Assembly: GCA_039809245.1 (NCBI GenBank)
Contig: JBDHUP010000001.1
Span: forward strand, 30,934-94,933
DNA from: Minisyncoccia bacterium
GTDB taxonomy: Bacteria > Patescibacteriota > Minisyncoccia > Phycocordibacterales > UBA9973
Length of the DNA stretch: 64,000 nucleotides
Direction of reading: 5' to 3'
Every line of letters begins with the position of its first letter. Position 1 is the stretch's first letter. The translations under genes were made by a program, and so were the position numbers. Below the pieces are notes generated by a model, which did no database searches, was not told the origin of the DNA, and saw only the letters and a program-made list of their open reading frames with translations. Below are positions 2,089-45,867 of the stretch, one piece after another.

Positions 2089-3600
2089 ATGGATAAGAAA
2101 AACACACAATCAAATATTGTGACTCGCCCACCCGTAGTTGTTGTTATGGGGCATGTTGATCATGGAAAATCCACTCTTCTTGATTTTATAAGAAAATCAA
2201 ATACTGTTGCCGATGAGTCAGGTGGTATAACACAACACATAAGTGCTTATGAAGTTACACATAAAGACGAGAAAGGTGAAGATCGACTTATTACTTTCCT
2301 TGATACTCCTGGGCATGAAGCATTTGAGAAAATGCGCGAGCGTGGAGCTATGACTGCTGATATCGCAATATTAGTAGTTTCAGCTGAAGACAGTGTGAAA
2401 GCCCAAACTGTAGAAGCATACAATACTATAATAGAAAGTAAGACTCCTTATATAGTTGCAATAAATAAGATTGATAAATCTAACGCAAATATAGAGAAAG
2501 TAAAGATGGATTTAGTAGAGAAAGGAATATATCTTGAAGGTATGGGCGGTGATATACCTTTTGTGCCAATATCATCTAAAGAAGGTACTGGTATTAATGA
2601 ACTTCTTGATATGGTTCTTCTAGTAGCTGATATTCAAGACCTTACTGGAGATAAATCACTTACAGCAAGTGGAGTAGTCATCGAAGCTAATCGTGAACCA
2701 AAGCGTGGAATTTCTGCAACATGCATCATAAAAAATGGGACATTGCGATCTGGAATGTTTGTTGCATGCGGACAAGCCATAGTTCCAACTAGAATAATGG
2801 AAAACTTTCTGGGTAAACCTGTAAAAGAAGCTACTTTTTCCTCTCCTATACGTCTAGTAGGTTTTGAATCTTTACCTGAAGTTGGAAGTGTATTTGAATC
2901 ATTTAAATCTAAGAAGGAAGCAGAGGCTTACGTCCGTATTGTGAAAGAAGAAAATCTTAGTGATAAAAAGAGTGATATTAATAATGTGTTGTCTGGAAAA
3001 CTCATACCTTTGGTTATAAAAACAGATGTAGCTGGTACAATAGAAGCTCTTGAAAAAGAGATTACTAAGCTAAACTCTGAAGAAATATCATTTAAGATAG
3101 TTAGTAAGGGTGTGGGTGCTATTAACGAGTCAGACTTAATGATGGCACGTGATAATAAAGAGAGTATTATTGTTGGTTTTAATACTAAGATAGACAATGC
3201 TGCTCGAGACTTAAACGAGCAGTTAAAAGTAACCATTGAAACATTTGATATTATCTATAAGCTAACCGACTGGCTAAAAATAATTCTAGAAGAAAGACGT
3301 CCTCGTCAAGAAGTTATTGAAGTCACAGGAACTATAAAGATTTTGAAAACATTTGGGGCAACAAAAGATAAGCAAGTTATAGGTGGAAAGGTTATATCTG
3401 GTCGTATAACTGATGGTGGTATGGTTAGAATAATAAGACGTGATTTTGAAATAGGTAAAGGTAAGATTGTAGGATTACAACTAAACAAAATAAAAACAAA
3501 AGAAGTACTTGAAGGAACAGATTGCGGTATGCTTGTTGATTCTAAGATAGAAATTGCCCCAGGAGATGTATTAGAAGCTTTTATCGTATCTATAAAATAA
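2089..3600 (+). CDS. infB: Translation initiation factor IF-2, short form that starts at the G domain
   Basis: 503 aa. G1 [18 protein letters not shown]3 [13 protein letters not shown]-terminal beta-barrel domains are present. No long N-terminal region. Confidence 0.9.
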
Positions 3601-3601
3601 A

Positions 3602-3928
3602 ATGTCAAATTTTCGATCAGAAAAAATAACAAATCATATAAAAGAGCTTGCGGCAATGTTTATCGAAAAAGAAGCAGGCCCAACATCACTCATAACCGTG
3701 ACTCGAGTTCTTCTCTCTCCTGATAATAAAAAAGCGAGTATCATGATAAGTGTGCTACCAAGAGACAAAGAAGATGCTGCTTTTGGATTTGTAAGACGTA
3801 ATCTAGGAGAATTACGTAAATATATATCGAAGGGTTTGAAAGTTAATCCTGTCCCATTCCTAGATGTTAAGATAGATGAGGGTGAGAAGAATCGCCAAAA
3901 AATTGACGAATTGCTCACGAAAAGTTAG
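3602..3928 (+). CDS. rbfA: Ribosome-binding factor A
   Basis: 108 aa. ITNHIKELAAMFIEKEAGPTSLITVTRVLLSPDNKKASIMISVLP is a typical RbfA KH fold. Canonical infB-rbfA adjacency, 1-nt spacing. Confidence 0.8.
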   Translation: MSNFRSEKITNHIKELAAMFIEKEAGPTSLITVTRVLLSPDNKKASIMISVLPRDKEDAAFGFVRRNLGELRKYISKGLKVNPVPFLDVKIDEGEKNRQKIDELLTKS

Positions 3929-3939
3929 GATAGTCTTAC

Positions 3940-4014
3940 GGCGTGGTGGCGAAGTGGTAACGCTGCGGTCTGCAAAACCGCCATTCGCGGGTTCGATTCC
4001 CGCCCACGCCTCCA
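3940..4014 (+). tRNA. tRNA-Cys (anticodon GCA)
   Basis: GGCGTGG acceptor stem pairs with CCACGCC. Anticodon stem GCGGT/ACCGC with loop CTGCAAA gives anticodon GCA. T-arm GGTTCGATTCC. Encoded CCA at the 3' end. Confidence 0.8.
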
Positions 4015-4048
4015 CGCGAGAAATCGCGAAGTGTTCACAAGTAAATAT

Positions 4049-4133
4049 GCCCAGGTGGCGGAATTGGTATACGCGCTAGTCTTAGGAACTAGTGGAGCAA
4101 TCCTTGGAGGTTCAAGTCCTCTCCTGGGCACCA
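4049..4133 (+). tRNA. tRNA-Leu (anticodon TAG), class II with long variable arm
   Basis: GCCCAGG acceptor pairs with CCTGGGC. Anticodon stem CTAGT/ACTAG with loop CTTAGGA gives anticodon TAG. Long variable arm TGGAGCAATCCTTGGAGG. T-arm GGTTCAAGTCC. Encoded CCA. Confidence 0.8.
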
Positions 4134-4964
4134 GAATGGAACAAGTCGCTGTTCTAAAGCTTCAAATCCATTTTTACATTTATACTGCAAGCTATTTTCA
4201 GAAAAATAAAGTTCAGAAAAGATATATCGGGTAAACTTATCTTTTTCAGCAGGGTTAGCAATAAAATCATATAGCATAAGGTTTTTCAAGAGTTCAGAAA
4301 GTTCAATTACTTTTTGAGCAACTTCCAAAATACTTGCAGTAGTAGTCTGCTCCTGTTGCGTTAACTGAACATATTGATTATTCAATTGCATCTCAGATTC
4401 CAGGTAACTTTCCGGAGTATATACGCCTGTTCTGAGTAAATTCAATTTGTTTTGCTGCAAGTAGTTGATATCCTCTTGCGTCTTTCTTTTTTGCCTATCT
4501 ATACTTGCCAAATGCTCTATTCTCTTTTGTTCTACTTCCGGTAATTCTATTTTTGTACTCTTCTCAATTTGAAGAAGCTCATCTTCGGTCAGAATCAATT
4601 TTTCAATAGTTTTTGAGATAACGCTATCGATAATCCCGTTATTAAAATTCTTGGTTTTATTCTCACAAAGAGGTTTACAATTTACACAGTAATACTGTAT
4701 ACCCTTTTTTATATATGGGGTGTAAACCCTTTGACAATTACCACATCGTATTAAACCTCTGTATGGATAAAATAGTTCACTGGAATATTTCACACTTACA
4801 TTTTTCTTATTCAACATCTGTTGCACCTTCATAAAGACTTCTTCGGATATTAATGGTTCATGGCTATTACTTTTTATGAATGTATCATTATTACCCACTA
4901 CACTTGAAAAAGTTGCAAAAGCATCAGGCGTTAAACTGGTTGATTTTTTTGAAGCTGACGACAA
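4089..4964 (-). pseudogene. Truncated large serine recombinase: C-terminal recombinase tail, zinc-ribbon and coiled-coil only; N-terminal resolvase catalytic domain absent
   Basis: 291-aa ORF. EPLISEEVFMKVQQML is the typical end of the recombinase domain. RCGNCQRVYTP...YYCVNCK is the Zn-ribbon. A long coiled-coil follows. There is no resolvase/invertase N-terminal domain and no upstream ORF that could supply it. The ORF's last 15 codons are encoded by the 3' half of tRNA-Leu (4089..4133). Confidence 0.6.
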
Positions 4965-5088
4965 TAATTTGGAAGATATAAATTCCTACGATGCTTCTTT
5001 GATGAAAAAGATGGTCTTTGCTTTTGTGGATGCTCTCGTAGGTAAGAAAAATTAAAGGATGCAATTAGTGGCGTTCTATCTGATATAA

Positions 5089-5120
5089 AGTAAGAAAGCT
5101 CCGAAAGGAGCTTTCTTACT
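5089..5120 (-). terminator. Rho-independent terminator downstream of the LRR gene
   Basis: Perfect palindrome AAGAAAGCTCC-GAAA-GGAGCTTTCTT, flanked by T-runs on the minus strand. Confidence 0.5.
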
Positions 5121-5125
5121 TATTT

Positions 5126-5980
5126 TTAAGCATATAGTTTACCAAAATCTTCTCTTCTGTGTGTGTAGTGTTTCCTGTTTTGATACGAGATTTTATTTAG
5201 ACTTTTTAGTTTTGTTATTGGTAATAAGTCACCGTCAATAATATTGGTTGATTCATAAAATAAAAAATCTTTTAGCTTTGTCAAATATTCTATCCCTTTG
5301 ATGCTTGCAATATCTCCTAAATCAATAAGTAAAAGGCGTTTAAGCTTCTTCAAGTGCAACACTTCGGATATGTTAGATATTCCTTTACAACTTTGAATTT
5401 CTAACTCTTCTAATTCGTGCAAATTTTGAAGCCCTTGAAGCGATGTTAATTTCTTTAAATTCCCTAATCGTAAAGTTTTTAAGTCTTTTAATGCTGATAG
5501 TCCTTGAATATTTTCAATGGGTGAATTTAATATTGACAACTCTTTAAGATTAAATAATTTTGAAAACATATCGCTACCTTTTTTATCATAGGTATTAATG
5601 AAAAGCTTTTGAATACTTGATGTTTCAAATAAAGAATCAGAACCTTTTATCCACTCAAAACTACATTCTACAAGGTTAGGAAAAGCATTGAAATTTATTG
5701 GTGTCTTACAGTACGTTGATATTTCAAATTTAAGTAATCCACTTAAACTATATATAGGTTTAATAGATTTTATACTAAAATCAATGATAGTTAGTGATTT
5801 CAGATTGGGAAGAAATTCAAGAAAATCTACATTATCCCCACGCCAACCCTTACTATCATTTAACTCTATTTCTTGTATATTTTTATCTAAAAGCAACTTT
5901 AAATACGAATCTTGCCACAACCCTTTTACAATTGCCTTTGTCCCTAATAATCCATTTTCAAATTCGATATTATTACTCAT
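5126..5980 (-). CDS. Leucine-rich repeat (LRR) protein
   Basis: 284 aa. About 22-residue periodic L..L..L.L..N.I repeats (LKELSILNSPIENIQGLSALKDLKTLRLGNLKKLTSLQGLQNLHELEELEIQSC...). No signal peptide. Confidence 0.6.
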   Translation of the reverse strand: MSNNIEFENGLLGTKAIVKGLWQDSYLKLLLDKNIQEIELNDSKGWRGDNVDFLEFLPNLKSLTIIDFSIKSIKPIYSLSGLLKFEISTYCKTPINFNAFPNLVECSFEWIKGSDSLFETSSIQKLFINTYDKKGSDMFSKLFNLKELSILNSPIENIQGLSALKDLKTLRLGNLKKLTSLQGLQNLHELEELEIQSCKGISNISEVLHLKKLKRLLLIDLGDIASIKGIEYLTKLKDFLFYESTNIIDGDLLPITKLKSLNKISYQNRKHYTHRREDFGKLYA

Positions 5981-5983
5981 AGT

Positions 5984-6457
5984 CTATGGGATTTTAGGTA
6001 ATAAATATTGTCTTGCTGGTCTAATTGGGTTACGGATGTTCTCAAGATACTTGATACCCCCAAAAGAATTTATACGTAACTGTTCTGCGATTTCTCGGGC
6101 AGTTTTACCACCTAAAACTTCTGTGGTTTTAACTACAGTTCCGGGCAATAATTTACCTGATGCAATGTGCTCTTCAAGTCTAGCTGCTATATTCCCTGAT
6201 TGCCCTATGTACGTTTTGCCTGATACTGCTGTAAACTGATAAATACCTTCAGTTGCTTGCACTCCCATTTTAGCTGCATTTAAGATATTTACAGTTTTAG
6301 CAACTACATTATAAGGCAAAGTAGTTACAAGTGCAAGTGCAGAAATTGTTGTAGCAGCATTTTTTGTTGTAAAAAAAGAGGTAGCTGCAACCTGATGCAA
6401 ATAAAAATAATTGGGGTGTCCTTCTACTACAGACTGAATATACTTTTGCTCCCACAT
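5984..6457 (-). CDS. GIY-YIG nuclease-domain protein
   Basis: 157 aa. GIYQFTAVSGKTYIGQSGNIAARLEEH matches the GIY...YIG...R...E core motif. Preceded by a 65-aa N-terminal region of unknown function. 4 nt downstream of the LRR gene stop. Confidence 0.5.
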   Translation of the reverse strand: MWEQKYIQSVVEGHPNYFYLHQVAATSFFTTKNAATTISALALVTTLPYNVVAKTVNILNAAKMGVQATEGIYQFTAVSGKTYIGQSGNIAARLEEHIASGKLLPGTVVKTTEVLGGKTAREIAEQLRINSFGGIKYLENIRNPIRPARQYLLPKIP

Positions 6458-6724
6458 CTTATTAGCTTCATCAAAAGGATTATGATAAATGAGTAAGCAA
6501 AATTAAAGAAACTCTATCTAGATACCCTAGCTCTTTGGTGGTCTTAATTGATTGCCACATATAAATGTAAAGTACCTATATTCCATAGGCTAAATAAATA
6601 AACTAGAATGGAACTTGTAGCAGTCTGCTTCTATTGCGCTATAGTGTTTTTTCAAAGGTTCTTGATTTATTCTAAATAAAATGTTATTTTTAATAAAAAT
6701 TGTAAACTACTAAAACTCCTAACT

Positions 6725-7153
6725 ATGCAAAAGACAACAACTGCGTTGCTTATTTTTTGGAAAGACGTAACGTTATTAGCACCGTCAAAATCAAAACACA
6801 GATTAATTGGACAAATTGATCCATTAGCCTGTTCCAACTTATTCTCATCAGAAAGAGAAAGGGTGAATTACATAAAGGATACCCTTGTTGGTAAAAAATT
6901 TGGTGGAAAGAATTTTCACACCAATTTTCATCTGATAAACAATCCTATCAAATTTAATCATGTGGATGAGCTTGGTCAAAAACTTTTTACAGCCTACATT
7001 GCCACTATCAAAAATGAAAAAATATTGAGAAATGGCTTCATTATTGATGAATCAGAAATGTGGGTAAACTTAGAGGAAATTAAAAAAAACAAAGGGTTTA
7101 TAATAAGCCCCATGTTTAAAAAAGCTCTCTGCTGTGTGTCTAAAATTCCCTAA
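6725..7153 (+). CDS. Hypothetical protein; weak call
   Basis: 142-aa ORF in an otherwise minus-strand region. No recognisable motifs. Confidence 0.2.
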   Translation: MQKTTTALLIFWKDVTLLAPSKSKHRLIGQIDPLACSNLFSSERERVNYIKDTLVGKKFGGKNFHTNFHLINNPIKFNHVDELGQKLFTAYIATIKNEKILRNGFIIDESEMWVNLEEIKKNKGFIISPMFKKALCCVSKIP

Positions 7154-7236: not shown

Positions 7237-10200
7237 TCAATACAATCCAGAGTTGAACCCCGAAGGAACAGAGCACATGAACGGTCTAGCTCCAAAATTC
7301 GCTGTACCGTCTGAATCTTGATACTGAGAACCCCAAGCTGGGTAAATAGTTCCAGACAGACCAGTGAATGCTGTGCCTAGCGAGCTACAATTCTTATAAA
7401 AACTTATTGTCTTTGAATCCATATCAAGAGCAACACCTATCACATCTCCATTATGCCCTTCGGTTCCATAATACCCTTGGTTACCAACATGGAATTTAAC
7501 ACCGTCATCCATAACCATAGACCACCCTGAAGAATCTTCTCCAAGAATCCTATTGAGATTTGCTGAACTAGTTGCAACTCCGACAAACTGGTCACCTGAT
7601 TTATCTAATTTAACTTCCCAATACCATTTACCACTTGATTTACCGATTTTTGATCTAACAACTCCGATTCCTCTATTCCAAGAAGCGGTAAGGTTTCCAT
7701 TAGAAAGTGAAACCTTTGATCCTTTATCTGAAGGGTTCCATGTAGTATAAGTCACTTTAGATGGTAAAACAACACCGTTATGAACAGTCGCAGAAACAGC
7801 AGAGGCATTCCCAATATTACCAGCCGCATCGTATGCTTTAGCGGTGAGAGAGTACGCACCGTTAGAAACGGTTGTAGTATTCCAAGTTATAGCCCAAGGT
7901 GCTGTAGTATCTGTATCTATCAAAGTATTATTTTTATAAAAATTAACTTTTGTGACTCCAATATTATCTGTAGCACTAGCTGCTAAAGTGACTACACTTG
8001 ATAAGGTTTGACCACTAGAAGGACTTGTGATTGCAACTACTGGAGGTATTGTATCTGGACCAGGAGAAACAGTATTACTCACAATAACAGACACAGGAGT
8101 CGATATAGTACTGTTACCTGCCGCATCGTATGCTTTAGCGGTTAATAAATGTATCCCATTAGAAACGGTTGTAGTATTCCAAGAATAACTATAATTTGAA
8201 GCAGGGTTCCCCGAACCTAATAACACAGGATTGCCAGTAGTAGGATTTCTATAAAAGTCGACATGATCTACCCCTATATTATCACTTACATTAACTATGA
8301 TTACTTTATTCTGTGATATCGTTTGTCCATTAGTAGGGTTTGTGATTAAAACTAATGGAGATGTTGTATCTGGACCATTATTAACAGTAATGGTAACTGT
8401 ATCAGTAGCAAATAAACCTCCATTATCAGTGACTTTTAATTGGAATGTATAAGACCCTTGTGAAAGACCTGTGACACCTGTTCCGACATTATTGGGGGTT
8501 GTCATAGAACCAGAACCTCCAGAGATTTTTGTCCACAGGTATGTTAAAGGACCATTCTCTGGATCACTACTTAGACTTCCAGAAAGAGAAGCTGAATTTG
8601 TAGGAAGAGTTATTGTTTGATCGGCTCCAGCATTTGCAACTGGAGGAAGATTCGAAGATATTAGTGTAGTAAAGTTGTATGTATAATTCGAAGCTAAATG
8701 ATTACCAGCAATATCAGTAATGGCAGTTGTTAAAGTCACTGAATAAGTTACACCCGCTGAAAGTGAAGATAAAGGAGTAATAGTAATCTTATTATTACTA
8801 TATGTTGAAGTAGAAGAAATTATATTAGATCCTTGCTTAATTTGTACACTTGAAGTTGTAACCGTACTTGAATTTAAAGGTTCACTAAATGTCACGACAG
8901 GTTTAATCGTAACAGGTACTCCTGTAGAGTTATTAGTTGGGGTTACACTTACAACTGTAGGAGGAGTAGTATCCGATGGAGGTGGAGTTGAACCTGTTTC
9001 TAGATAACCTATATCAGGAGCAGATCCACTAAATGGAAGACCGACGTTAATCCCAGAGTCGATGAGAGGAGAACTCGCAGATAAAGAATATGTTGAGGTG
9101 TTTGCAAAGGCAGGGTTGATATTAATTAGATTGTTAGCATAGGTATAGTTAACAGGTGCTGGTGCATTTGCAAGTAGCGGAGCATTATCATTCCCATTAC
9201 CATACATATCATTATTACTAATATTAAGATTTGTAATACCAACAGAACTATACTGAGTAATAGGAGCACCCATAGCACCATTAATAATATTATTCTTTAT
9301 ATTAACATTACTTATCGAACCGGAATCTATACTAGGTAATTGAATTCCCCACCAAGTCTGATTTGATGGAGACATAATCATAGTATTATTATAAACACTA
9401 AGACCATTATAAGTTACATTGGTATGACCATCACCTCCAAAATTTATAAAAAATCCTGTACCCTCTCCCATTCCTATATTTTTAATAAGATTTCGACGAA
9501 TAATATTGTTTTTAATAACTGAATTATCTCTTGGAGTATATAGAACGCCAGTTGTAATTTTATCAAAAACATTATCTTCTACTATAGCTGTATCTGTCTG
9601 AAATTCTAACGTAACAGCTGTTTGAATATAATTATTTATATAAGGCATTTGTATCAGATTGTGATGAATCCAAGTTGAAAAAGCATATGAGCCTTTATCT
9701 TGGTAATTTAGATCAATTCCACCACCATTCATTGTATTGTTATAAATCTCCAATCCTTGAACATTGAATAATTCAATGGCAAAATCCCAGTTATTATTAC
9801 CTTCTGGAGCACCGTTCATAATCTTATTGAGAGTATTATTATAGATTTTAACTCCTTTCAAATATCCATCATTCCAATATTTTATAGGCCAACCATTTTG
9901 TCCTTGAGGTCTACTGTCCTGAGTAATAGTATTATTATAAATCAACATGCCATCTTGTCCTCCAATATTTAAAGCTCCTGCTCCATATTGATTATTTACA
10001 TATCTAGCACTATTAGTCATTATATTATCATGAAAAGAATTACCAGTAGCATAAATATTAGGAGCACCATCTCCAGTATCTATTCTACCTCCAAACAAAA
10101 CTCCTCTATCTTTAAAATCTTGTATAGTTGTATTGTAAATACTAACATTACTTCTTCCAGCAACTTGAATTCCCCAGAATGTATGCAAATTCTGACCATC

Positions 10201-10659
10201 AATTTTAAGATTTGAAATATGCTGATTACCATTAGTTCCTTCAGCGTTTGAAGTAAGCTCTATCATGGCTGTCCAATCACTACTAAGATTACTTTTCAAT
10301 ATAGAATTATTCCCATTTCCTTCAATGCTGACACCTGTATGCAATAGACAAGCTTCAGATTCTATATATGTACCAGCATTAACATGTATAATATCTCCTG
10401 AACCAGAGACTGAATTACAAGCTTTTGCAAGAGTCTTCCATGGAGAAGATTGAGCCCCAGAGTTAGAATCATTACCAGCAGTATCTACATAATATGTATT
10501 TCCGGCAGCAAAAGTGTGACTTGAAGATATCACAATTCCAACACTAAATATGAATGCTACTATTAATACAATATAGTGTACTGTATTCTTATTGGCTGTC
10601 TGGTGCCATTTATAATACCATGCTAAGTTGCTCTCTAATCTTTTATGTAGCTTTTCCAT
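7237..10659 (-). CDS. Giant cell-surface protein: N-terminal TM/signal anchor, right-handed parallel beta-helix region, Ig-like and PKD domains, C-terminal SPRY/B30.2-like domain
   Basis: 1140 aa. N-terminal hydrophobic anchor VHYIVLIVAFIFSVGIVISS. Asn-rich NN[IL] beta-helix repeats. PKD motif LTYLWTKISGGSGS. Two about 98-aa Ig-like repeats (DNIGVDHVDFYRN... and DNIGVTKVNFYKN...). C-terminal WNPSD...GKWYWEVKLD...GDVIGVALDMDSKTISFYKN...PAWG matches the SPRY pattern. Confidence 0.75.
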   Translation of the reverse strand: MEKLHKRLESNLAWYYKWHQTANKNTVHYIVLIVAFIFSVGIVISSSHTFAAGNTYYVDTAGNDSNSGAQSSPWKTLAKACNSVSGSGDIIHVNAGTYIESEACLLHTGVSIEGNGNNSILKSNLSSDWTAMIELTSNAEGTNGNQHISNLKIDGQNLHTFWGIQVAGRSNVSIYNTTIQDFKDRGVLFGGRIDTGDGAPNIYATGNSFHDNIMTNSARYVNNQYGAGALNIGGQDGMLIYNNTITQDSRPQGQNGWPIKYWNDGYLKGVKIYNNTLNKIMNGAPEGNNNWDFAIELFNVQGLEIYNNTMNGGGIDLNYQDKGSYAFSTWIHHNLIQMPYINNYIQTAVTLEFQTDTAIVEDNVFDKITTGVLYTPRDNSVIKNNIIRRNLIKNIGMGEGTGFFINFGGDGHTNVTYNGLSVYNNTMIMSPSNQTWWGIQLPSIDSGSISNVNIKNNIINGAMGAPITQYSSVGITNLNISNNDMYGNGNDNAPLLANAPAPVNYTYANNLININPAFANTSTYSLSASSPLIDSGINVGLPFSGSAPDIGYLETGSTPPPSDTTPPTVVSVTPTNNSTGVPVTIKPVVTFSEPLNSSTVTTSSVQIKQGSNIISSTSTYSNNKITITPLSSLSAGVTYSVTLTTAITDIAGNHLASNYTYNFTTLISSNLPPVANAGADQTITLPTNSASLSGSLSSDPENGPLTYLWTKISGGSGSMTTPNNVGTGVTGLSQGSYTFQLKVTDNGGLFATDTVTITVNNGPDTTSPLVLITNPTNGQTISQNKVIIVNVSDNIGVDHVDFYRNPTTGNPVLLGSGNPASNYSYSWNTTTVSNGIHLLTAKAYDAAGNSTISTPVSVIVSNTVSPGPDTIPPVVAITSPSSGQTLSSVVTLAASATDNIGVTKVNFYKNNTLIDTDTTAPWAITWNTTTVSNGAYSLTAKAYDAAGNIGNASAVSATVHNGVVLPSKVTYTTWNPSDKGSKVSLSNGNLTASWNRGIGVVRSKIGKSSGKWYWEVKLDKSGDQFVGVATSSANLNRILGEDSSGWSMVMDDGVKFHVGNQGYYGTEGHNGDVIGVALDMDSKTISFYKNCSSLGTAFTGLSGTIYPAWGSQYQDSDGTANFGARPFMCSVPSGFNSGLY
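7790..8400. repeat. Two tandem, roughly 296-bp direct repeats inside the surface-protein gene that encode the Ig-like domains
   Basis: Near-identical 60-nt blocks gccgcatcgtatgctttagcggt...gaaacggttgtagtattccaag occur at about 7829 and about 8125. Confidence 0.5.
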
Positions 10660-10792: not shown

Positions 10793-11026
10793 ATGACGAT
10801 TATTGCTACTATATTACCGTATATACAGATTATACTGTCTATTATTTTGATTGTTGCTATCCTATTACAGCAATCAGATACAGGCGCAGGAGGTGTTTTT
10901 GGGGGTGGAGATGGAGGTGGCTTATACCACACACGTCGAGGCTTCGAAAAGTTCCTATTTATTACAACAATTGTTGTTGGAATACTTTTTGCTGTATCAG
11001 CCTTTATTGCAATACTCGTTAAGTAA
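10793..11026 (+). CDS. secG: Preprotein translocase subunit SecG
   Basis: 77 aa, two TM helices flanking a Gly-rich loop. ILLQQSDTGAGGVFGGGDGGGLYHTRRGFEKFL fits the SecG pattern LLQ..G.G..FGGG....RRG.E..L. Confidence 0.6.
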   Translation: MTIIATILPYIQIILSIILIVAILLQQSDTGAGGVFGGGDGGGLYHTRRGFEKFLFITTIVVGILFAVSAFIAILVK

Positions 11027-45363: not shown

Positions 45364-45867
45364 CTACAAGGCATCATCTGAAAATAGGTCTGGGGGTGGC
45401 AGGGGTAGTATCCTTATGAGTTTTGCTTCTATTTGCCCTTGATCGTTTGGTGAACCAATGACAACTACAGATGAGTCAACTTTCAGATCGTCCTTCGTAC
45501 CTTCCTCTCGCATCTGACGAACTTGAGTATCATCTGTAACTAGAATAACTTTTTCTATATTATTTCTATCTTCAACAATTAAAGTTGGGAATTCAACTTT
45601 AATAATCTTACCGATTGAACCATGTGAGTTTGGTGAATTCTCAGGAAAGTTATCCATCATCCGCATACCCCCATTATAAACTGGGCCGAAATTGCGAGAA
45701 AAGTTATCATCCCAATCATTCCTAAATGAACCCTTGTGGAAACCTACAAACATTCCAGCTTGGAAAATTGAAAAGGCAATAAATAAAACTCCAAGCGTAT
45801 ATATAATACTCTTGAACATTTTAGGTTCTGATAATTTTTCTATTTGTTTTTTTATTTTATTAATCAT
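45364..45867 (-). CDS. Hypothetical membrane-anchored protein
   Basis: 167 aa. One N-terminal TM. Periplasm-side domain without a motif. Confidence 0.35.
   Translation of the reverse strand: MINKIKKQIEKLSEPKMFKSIIYTLGVLFIAFSIFQAGMFVGFHKGSFRNDWDDNFSRNFGPVYNGGMRMMDNFPENSPNSHGSIGKIIKVEFPTLIVEDRNNIEKVILVTDDTQVRQMREEGTKDDLKVDSSVVVIGSPNDQGQIEAKLIRILPLPPPDLFSDDAL

Follow-up and report, generated by a model that had tools for sequence, protein, structure and literature searches.

The stretch of DNA analysed here, a 64-kb window of a Paceibacteria chromosome (Patescibacteria, the candidate phyla radiation or CPR), carries at its tRNA-Leu(TAG) gene a 291-aa open reading frame (ORF) that runs from a truncated large serine recombinase gene into the tRNA itself. 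On the sequence evidence, we consider it highly probable that an element encoding a serine integrase entered the 3' end of tRNA-Leu(TAG) through an attachment site (attP) located inside its own integrase gene, and that the element subsequently decayed. The copy in the window would itself be an ordinary dead remnant. The features on which this reading turns are listed below; L- and P-numbers denote the loci and proteins used for comparison, attB is the empty target site, and attL and attR are the two junctions of an integrated element.

4049-4133, plus strand: tRNA-Leu(TAG), from ARAGORN; apparent integration target and B arm of attL; intact, with CCA encoded.
4089..4964, minus strand: chimeric ORF of 291 aa with a TTG start, made up of XRE antisense, recombinase and junction/tRNA-Leu antisense sequence.
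4126..4896, minus strand: large serine recombinase gene remnant, with the end of the Recombinase domain, the zinc ribbon and a helical coiled-coil region.
4126..4131: core GGGCAC, common to attP, attB and attL, and found as CGCAC in the attR of L137.
4890..4900: apparent deletion joint, mid-recombinase fused to mid-XRE; the recombinase homology ends at 4896 and the XRE homology begins at about 4891-4897.
4897..5055, plus strand: C-terminal fragment (about 53 aa) of an XRE-family HTH_3 repressor gene, with the N-terminal helices deleted.
5088..5121: strong hairpin terminator with a 15-bp stem, from a terminator scan, between the XRE fragment and the LRR gene described below.
6602..6624: possible degenerate attR, or the point where the host flank begins; repeats the attL junction at 4130-4152 with 18 of 23 positions identical.

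The original prediction, made from the letters of the window, had described the minus-strand ORF as the C-terminal part of a large serine recombinase without its resolvase domain, and both Pfam and database comparisons bore this out. The ORF consists of three parts: codons 1-23 are antisense to the truncated XRE repressor gene, codons 24-275 correspond to the recombinase, and codons 276-291 (16 residues) derive from the junction and the antisense strand of tRNA-Leu. The closest full-length relative is P0090, a 586-aa "recombinase family protein [Ferruginibacter sp.]" (MBP6025451.1) with Resolvase and Recombinase domains (PF00239, E=3.5e-13, motif YNRKSTDE). Residues 24-275 of the ORF are 91% identical to residues 298-549 of P0090 over 252 aa (BLASTP), and window positions 4126-4896 are 88.8% identical to the P0090 locus, L172, over 771 nt (blastn). 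Compared with P0090, two parts are missing from the ORF: the N-terminal 297 residues with the catalytic domain, and the native tail formed by the last 37 residues. P0090 residues 1-297 were left unmatched, as expected from the N-terminal deletion that had been predicted. No Resolvase catalytic domain was found in the 291-aa ORF by Pfam, and a tblastn search of the whole 64-kb window found no N-terminal recombinase sequence anywhere, nor an intact catalytic domain upstream of the ORF. The Recombinase domain (PF07508; profile positions 72-101 of 102, E=0.0024, 18.5 bits against a cut-off of 21.1) and Zn_ribbon_recom (PF13408; E=0.00095, 19.9 bits against a cut-off of 25.3) were matched below threshold, in the correct order of Recombinase end followed by zinc ribbon, and the four-cysteine ribbon CGNC...CVNCKPLC is present. 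Homology to P0090, in which the Recombinase domain is complete, identifies the matched stretch as the end of that domain. The identity of the ORF as a large serine recombinase is settled by homology; it is a fragment of a family member without the catalytic domain and would not be a functional member.

The ORF overlaps the 3' half of tRNA-Leu by 45 nt, equal to 14 codons and the stop, close to the 15 or so codons originally estimated. Homology to the attP of L172 and L003 stops exactly at the core, and the crossover most likely falls within the GGGCAC block at 4126-4131. The four kinds of attachment site read as follows:

attP (L003, L172): TTTA-GGGCAC-AA
attB (L097, L117): TCCT-GGGCAC-AA
attL (window): TCCT-GGGCAC-CAG
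attR (L137): TTTAG-CGCAC-ACA

The original prediction had been of insertion into a tRNA 3' end followed by decay. The insertion and the loss of the N-terminus stand; the tRNA-encoded C-terminus, however, is not a product of decay, but the normal attL state of a recombinase family that carries attP inside the 3' end of its gene.

This family is large, with at least 909 protein clusters at E<=1e-20 in a profile search; it is abundant in Patescibacteria and also occurs in metagenome-assembled genomes (MAGs) labelled Bacteroidota and Betaproteobacteria. A metagenome scan yielded 80 recombinase loci, with stop-to-stop ORFs of median length 583 aa. The ORF ends 20-70 nt inside an antisense tRNA in 39 of the 80 (33 Glu, 3 Ala and 1 each of Arg, Trp and Leu), while 30 have a native tail and no tRNA, 7 are cut by the contig end and 4 are of other kinds. 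Among 129 family proteins, about 69 have tRNA-type ends and about 53 native tails. The C-termini of the homologues are thus of two kinds, a conserved native tail and the translated antisense 3' half of a tRNA (NRT..., EDLNLQ...). The native tail has the pattern C(D/E)PTxW(L/I)SE..., reading W(L/I)SEL......I..S..EL after ...C(D/E)PT. In 48 native-tail sequences, W557 and E560 are invariant, so that the displaced tail is under constraint, and S559 and L575 are nearly invariant. In integrated copies the ORF remains full-length, at 560-590 aa. Full-length members have both the Resolvase and the Recombinase domain, and the former was present in all six full-length loci checked.

In six loci (L015, L020, L027, L041, L048 and L085), an orphan native tail was found upstream of a tRNA-fused recombinase on the same strand, at a distance of 5.8-9.7 kb from the recombinase in the four simple pairs. 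This is the position expected for attR if attP lies inside the integrase gene. The core blocks are GGGCAC in the Leu clade and GTGACCCCAC in the Glu clade, corresponding to shared att cores of 6 bp and about 10 bp, respectively; attL and attR of L048 share 15 nt. In the tRNA-Glu clade, the core GTGACCC(C)AC encodes C-D-P-T and is at the same time the antisense of the 3' strand of the tRNA acceptor. The attP-in-gene architecture itself is directly apparent in these paired loci. Tails also occur in duplicate: L015 (98-217 and 649-741) and L085 (7782-7901 and 8761-8859) each have two orphan tails upstream of one tRNA-fused recombinase, a sign that elements integrated serially or in tandem at one tRNA.

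Fusion to a tRNA also occurs in two more distant recombinase clades, at tRNA-Leu(GAG) for P0011 (L001) and at tRNA-Asn for P0012 (L175). In L110 (IF-2 identity 73%), an intact 538-aa recombinase of another clade, 44% identical to P0011 (12115-13731, minus strand), ends 20 nt inside the same tRNA-Leu(TAG) that is occupied in the window; this site has therefore been used by at least two recombinase lineages. The complete elements in L020 and L041 carry glycosyltransferases, membrane proteins and a HARE-HTH/PD-(D/E)XK protein as cargo, and no phage or conjugation genes were seen in them. A profile scan of IMG/VR found no relatives of the family and gave no support for a phage origin. We also considered whether the 420-aa homologues P0003-P0006 represent a natural family without a catalytic domain, and rejected this, since most loci hold ORFs of 565-620 aa that include the Resolvase domain.

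The AlphaFold model of P0090 (mean predicted local distance difference test score, pLDDT, of 78.7) consists of a catalytic domain, a recombinase domain, zinc-ribbon strands at residues 346-382 and long helices at residues 383-509, and the native tail forms a predicted C-terminal helix at residues 561-585. In a Foldseek search, the model matched large serine integrases of solved structure (complex 9dxh, Bxb1, PhiC31 and LI integrase) with E-values of 1e-16 to 1e-10, at only 12-17% sequence identity. A profile search with the family found no match among the PDB sequences, and the link to the solved integrases is made by the fold search only. P0090 itself (L172, 10001-11761) stands in a MAG labelled Ferruginibacter sp. 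(Bacteroidota), in an island that adjoins tRNA-Arg and contains a Bacteroidota-type tyrosine integrase, an ArdC-like protein, a KAP NTPase and an OLD-family nuclease. The 88.8% nucleotide and 91% amino acid identity to a CPR remnant reflects either recent sharing across phyla, possibly between epibiont and host, or misbinning.

The following history would account for the locus. A small integrative element inserted, we propose, into the extreme 3' end of tRNA-Leu(TAG) in the Paceibacteria chromosome; it would have carried a large serine recombinase of about 586 aa, and complete elements of this kind in relatives are 6-10 kb long. With attP inside the last part of the recombinase gene, exchange within GGGCAC would have fused the body of the gene with the tRNA antisense strand and displaced the native 37-aa C-terminal tail to the opposite end of the element, attR. 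The integrated gene would then end in 16 residues encoded by the junction and the tRNA, and the half of the core borne by the element would restore the tRNA 3' end. A later deletion presumably removed about 890 nt from the 5' side of the recombinase gene, with the Resolvase domain and the greater part of the Recombinase domain, and it may have reached on into the middle of an XRE repressor gene in divergent orientation. It is because the recombinase homology meets the XRE antisense at 4896/4897 that we place the fusion of the two genes, each in mid-sequence, at this joint. The tail and the attR end would also have decayed or been lost, leaving an immobile remnant at about 4126-6600.

The XRE fragment gave no Pfam match; its identity came from a database search, in which it was 65% identical to the C-terminal part of P0013 and P0014 (91 and 97 aa; PF01381). 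The closest full XRE homologue (L170, about 880-930) has an in-frame stop (..KKGMS*KELITAVG..) where XRE proteins usually have Gln. That gene may be a pseudogene, or the stop may be recoded as Gln, as in some phages.

Several observations weigh against the proposed insertion and decay. Nine nucleotides beside the core in the window attL (CAGAATGGA) differ from the attP of L172 and L003 (AACAAGAGA and AAGAAGAGA), with an additional 1-nt indel; the position given for the crossover is therefore approximate, and the integrating element's own attP may have differed from both. No remnant of the attR tail was found: tail and attP DNA from L172, L003 and L137 matched window positions 6440-6640 no better than shuffled sequences did, so that the right boundary rests on the 18/23 repeat and the spacing of the flank. 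Finally, the 252 recombinase codons are still open, with a ratio of nonsynonymous to synonymous substitution (dN/dS) of 0.146 against L003, which permits a recent truncation but also a function that was kept.

The last point would be explained if the 291-aa product were a truncated protein retained for a function of its own, in which the zinc ribbon and coiled-coil might bind att sites and block the integration or excision of related elements. About 6% of random codons in this genome are stops, which makes an open frame of 252 codons a point in favor of this idea, as is the presence on 7 contigs of a similarly truncated protein, the 292-aa P0007, beside an HTH_3 gene. However, P0007 and the window ORF are truncated at different points, the first 23 codons of the window ORF are antisense to another gene fragment, and its start codon is TTG. 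No promoter-like signal above chance was found for the ORF, and the strong terminator at 5088-5121 lies just upstream. A low dN/dS would also result from a recent truncation that came after most of the divergence; indeed, the low ratio and the open frame fit the recent truncation of a gene that was functional through most of that divergence. We therefore regard a retained function as unlikely, and the ORF as probably non-functional. P0007 (L006-L009) is itself an N-terminally truncated recombinase of the same family with a native tail, located directly downstream of the HTH_3 gene; it is similar to the window ORF in length, with a different breakpoint.

The remnant lies between tRNA-Leu and secG, in an interval bounded by a conserved backbone:

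2089..3600: IF-2, upstream of RbfA.
3602..3928: RbfA, 108 aa (PF02033, E=4e-13), directly after IF-2.
3940-4014, plus strand: tRNA-Cys(GCA), from ARAGORN; conserved backbone.
10793..11026, plus strand: secG (PF03840), right-hand backbone limit of the variable interval.

ARAGORN found only two tRNAs in the window, tRNA-Cys(GCA) and tRNA-Leu(TAG), both on the plus strand, and their coordinates together with the Pfam match of RbfA confirmed the predicted order of rbfA, tRNA-Cys and tRNA-Leu. Using IF-2 as a probe, we recovered 80 Paceibacteria/Nomurabacteria-like genomes. The order rbfA, tRNA-Cys, tRNA-Leu recurs in about 30 close relatives, in which the backbone runs aminotransferase, DUF4446, IF-2, RbfA, tRNA-Cys, tRNA-Leu(TAG), gap, SecG, SBP_bac_5 protein and RNase J; secG is 73-88% identical across the relatives. 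The gap between tRNA-Leu(TAG) and secG measures about 63-75 nt in L112 and L128, which represent clean empty sites, a few hundred nt to 3.8 kb in other relatives, and 6.66 kb in the window, the largest examined. The interval is thus hypervariable, as befits the island site that had been predicted, and the gene order of the window is not shared by its relatives. A change in composition had also been anticipated, but the GC and skew profile across 4-11 kb shows no shift that would mark an island.

In the closest relative, L137 (80% IF-2 identity), about 25 nt from the 3' end of the recombinase gene survive beside the tRNA. Its minus strand also holds, about 1.3 kb further along, an XRE gene together with an orphan tail, CALKEWIYELPSHQEKIIYSIEELKNYSNKPPT (61% identity to the tail of P0002), followed by orf142 and secG. 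The same kind of element thus appears to have sat at the same tRNA in L137 and in the window genome, with decay that was complementary in the two. In the window, the interval contains the following genes:

5126..5980, minus strand: LRR protein, 284 aa (Pfam LRR_4 and LRR_EndoS), inside the remnant.
5984..6457, minus strand: GIY-YIG-like protein, 157 aa (PF01541, E=0.0018, below the curated cut-off), inside the remnant.
6725..7153, plus strand: orf142, host flank outside the recombinase element, sporadic among relatives.
7237..10659, minus strand: predicted surface protein, 1140 aa (Pfam Big_5, PKD, two copies of Big_7 and a C-terminal SPRY).

The original prediction had taken everything immediately to the right of the tRNA as cargo, and the whole interval from tRNA-Leu to secG (4.1-10.7 kb) could in principle be one element, with the LRR, GIY-YIG-like, orf142 and 1140-aa proteins all belonging to it. 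L112 and L128, with their empty sites, lack the interval, and its 6.7 kb together with the deleted part would resemble a complete element of 6-10 kb. Two relatives speak against this extent. Homologues of orf142 adjoin secG both in L137 (54% identity), where orf142 lies to the right of the attR tail, and in L097 (44% identity), which has an attB-like tRNA flank and no trace of a recombinase; orf142 is therefore part of the flank. Since orf142 and secG are adjacent in both genomes, the 1140-aa gene, which splits this pair in the window, would be a separate, lineage-specific insertion between them. Furthermore, no tail or core was found near 10.7 kb, and the homology to the L097 flank begins near 6661. 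We accordingly think it improbable that a single element fills the interval. The 1140-aa protein had only one other match, a PKD-domain match at the same position in L101.

In the preferred reading of a smaller remnant, the flank homology with L097, which includes orf142 and its upstream sequence, would set the right-hand limit: it starts at about 6661, equivalent to 42 nt past the end of the tRNA in L097, so that the old tRNA-proximal junction should lie at about 6600-6620. The repeat at 6602-6624 overlaps only the ACCA of the tRNA; as a degenerate attR it is a weak candidate, since no remnant coding for a tail could be detected to the left of it. A direct repeat of the tRNA-Leu 3' segment had been expected to mark attR, but the 25-nt segment has no second copy in the window at up to 3 mismatches on either strand; serine recombinases are not expected to leave a long direct repeat. 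The remnant would then cover about 4126-6600, comprising the recombinase fragment, the XRE fragment, the LRR gene and the GIY-YIG-like gene. The LRR protein is probably cargo or a later insertion; its gene is absent from the loci of all 80 relatives, and tblastn found no homologues of either the LRR or the GIY-YIG-like protein in the 175 fetched loci. A search of the window with five native tails (tblastn) gave one tail-like match, at 45656..45588 (E=0.03), which we rejected as due to chance, as it is out of frame inside a real ORF for a 167-aa membrane protein. Beside the core, window positions 4132-4140 (CAGAATGGA) match the candidate attR copy at 6604-6612 (TAGAATGGA) at 8 of 9 positions; the identity block between attP and attB of the integrated element may have been about 17 nt long, or the ends may have been converted.

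Least credible by far is an accidental read-through of a stop-less pseudogene, unrelated to any integration junction: the tRNA-derived residues have no evident function and the ORF does end at the first stop in the antisense tRNA, but the match with the intact gene breaks off precisely at the tRNA core, the same fusion occurs in 39 of the 80 family loci and in two other clades (P0011/L001, L110 and P0012/L175), and displaced tails are located at the opposite ends of elements.

The family resembles the PhiC31, Bxb1, A118/LI and SPbeta-type integrases in the Resolvase and Recombinase domains, the four-cysteine zinc ribbon and the long helical coiled-coil of its full-length members, and resembles large serine integrases generally in the short core of identity between attP and attB, here 6-10 bp. 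It differs from them in its targeting of tRNA gene 3' ends and in the location of attP inside the integrase coding sequence, by which integration alters the C-terminus; the window copy differs further in lacking the catalytic domain. According to a 2014 source, serine integrases are not known to use tRNA gene 3' ends (PMC4383910), and a 2022 survey of large serine recombinases nowhere mentions tRNA (PMC10083194). Our own literature search for serine integrases that target tRNA genes or have attP inside int found nothing specific, with incomplete coverage that makes an earlier description possible. The older view that tRNA genes are not among the targets of serine integrases (PMC4383910) would be revised by a tRNA-targeting family.

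In mechanism, myxophage Mx8 offers the nearest functional parallel to the tail swap. The attP of Mx8 lies within int, and integration yields a recombinant int with a new 3' end, converting IntP to IntX (PMC6070905, citing Tojo 1996 and Magrini 1999; PMC4383910), the integrated form being described there as having altered properties (PMC6070905). The attP in int and the new 3' end on integration are thus common to both systems. However, the Int of Mx8, a tailed phage, belongs to the tyrosine recombinases, whereas the family described here consists of serine recombinases on small cargo elements of 6-10 kb. An activity altered by the swap is documented for Mx8 and may, by analogy, occur in the present family. 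The 1996 and 1999 studies of Mx8 reportedly place its target at the 3' end of a tRNA-Asp gene.

The 'suicidal' integrases of the archaeal SSV type (fuselloviruses) also have the recombination site inside the integrase ORF, and the gene is partitioned on integration (PMC7253208; PMC4383910). These archaeal tyrosine recombinases are split into two non-functional parts, whereas here the displacement is limited to the last 37 or so residues. SSV-type integrases likewise target tRNA genes. Tycheposon-like tRNA islands are similar in being small integrative elements with variable cargo that form hypervariable islands in streamlined genomes; they differ in that the present elements have no long displaced tRNA fragment or direct repeat, and in that the hosts here are Patescibacteria. 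In the tycheposon preprint, 27 of 937 elements carry a large serine recombinase, no att architecture is given, and the attP-in-gene arrangement is not described in its text (10.1101/2020.12.28.424599). As in a classical tRNA gene (tDNA) island, recognized by the Islander signature, the insertion is sporadic among relatives and the empty sites (L112 and L128) are precise, but no repeat formed by a displaced tDNA 3' fragment marks the far end in the window.

As tools for genome insertion in one direction, serine integrases hold the leading place, and a separate protein, the recombination directionality factor (RDF), normally controls the direction in which they act. In the widespread family described here, with attP in its own 3' end and the 3' acceptor ends of tRNAs as targets, exchange of the tail helix may, we suggest tentatively, act as a built-in switch of activity or directionality. 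If so, the swap would be reversible and the free and integrated forms would differ, making them a serine-recombinase counterpart of IntP and IntX of Mx8. A natural family that rewrites its own C-terminus upon integration at conserved tRNA 3' ends would offer a new principle of regulation, and tRNA 3' ends as landing sites would offer a ready-made attB in almost any bacterium, including uncultured Patescibacteria, for which, to our knowledge, few genetic tools have been reported. Serine integrases that target tRNAs and swap a C-terminal helix would constitute a variation on known kinds, exposed by the remnant in the window. For the window genome itself, the significance is modest: the insertion would account for the hypervariable stretch that separates tRNA-Leu from secG in this streamlined CPR chromosome, where the recombinase appears to be dead.

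Rearrangements were also seen around the target tRNAs of the relatives. Inverted partial copies of the tRNA 3' end or core occur 50-70 nt away, across a terminator hairpin, 3' of tRNA-Leu in L117, L109 and L137 and in the attR flanks of L041 and L027, and tRNA-Leu(TAG) is inverted relative to tRNA-Cys in three relatives (L091, L093 and L116). The inverted copies and the inverted tRNA-Leu could be traces of inversions mediated by the recombinase.

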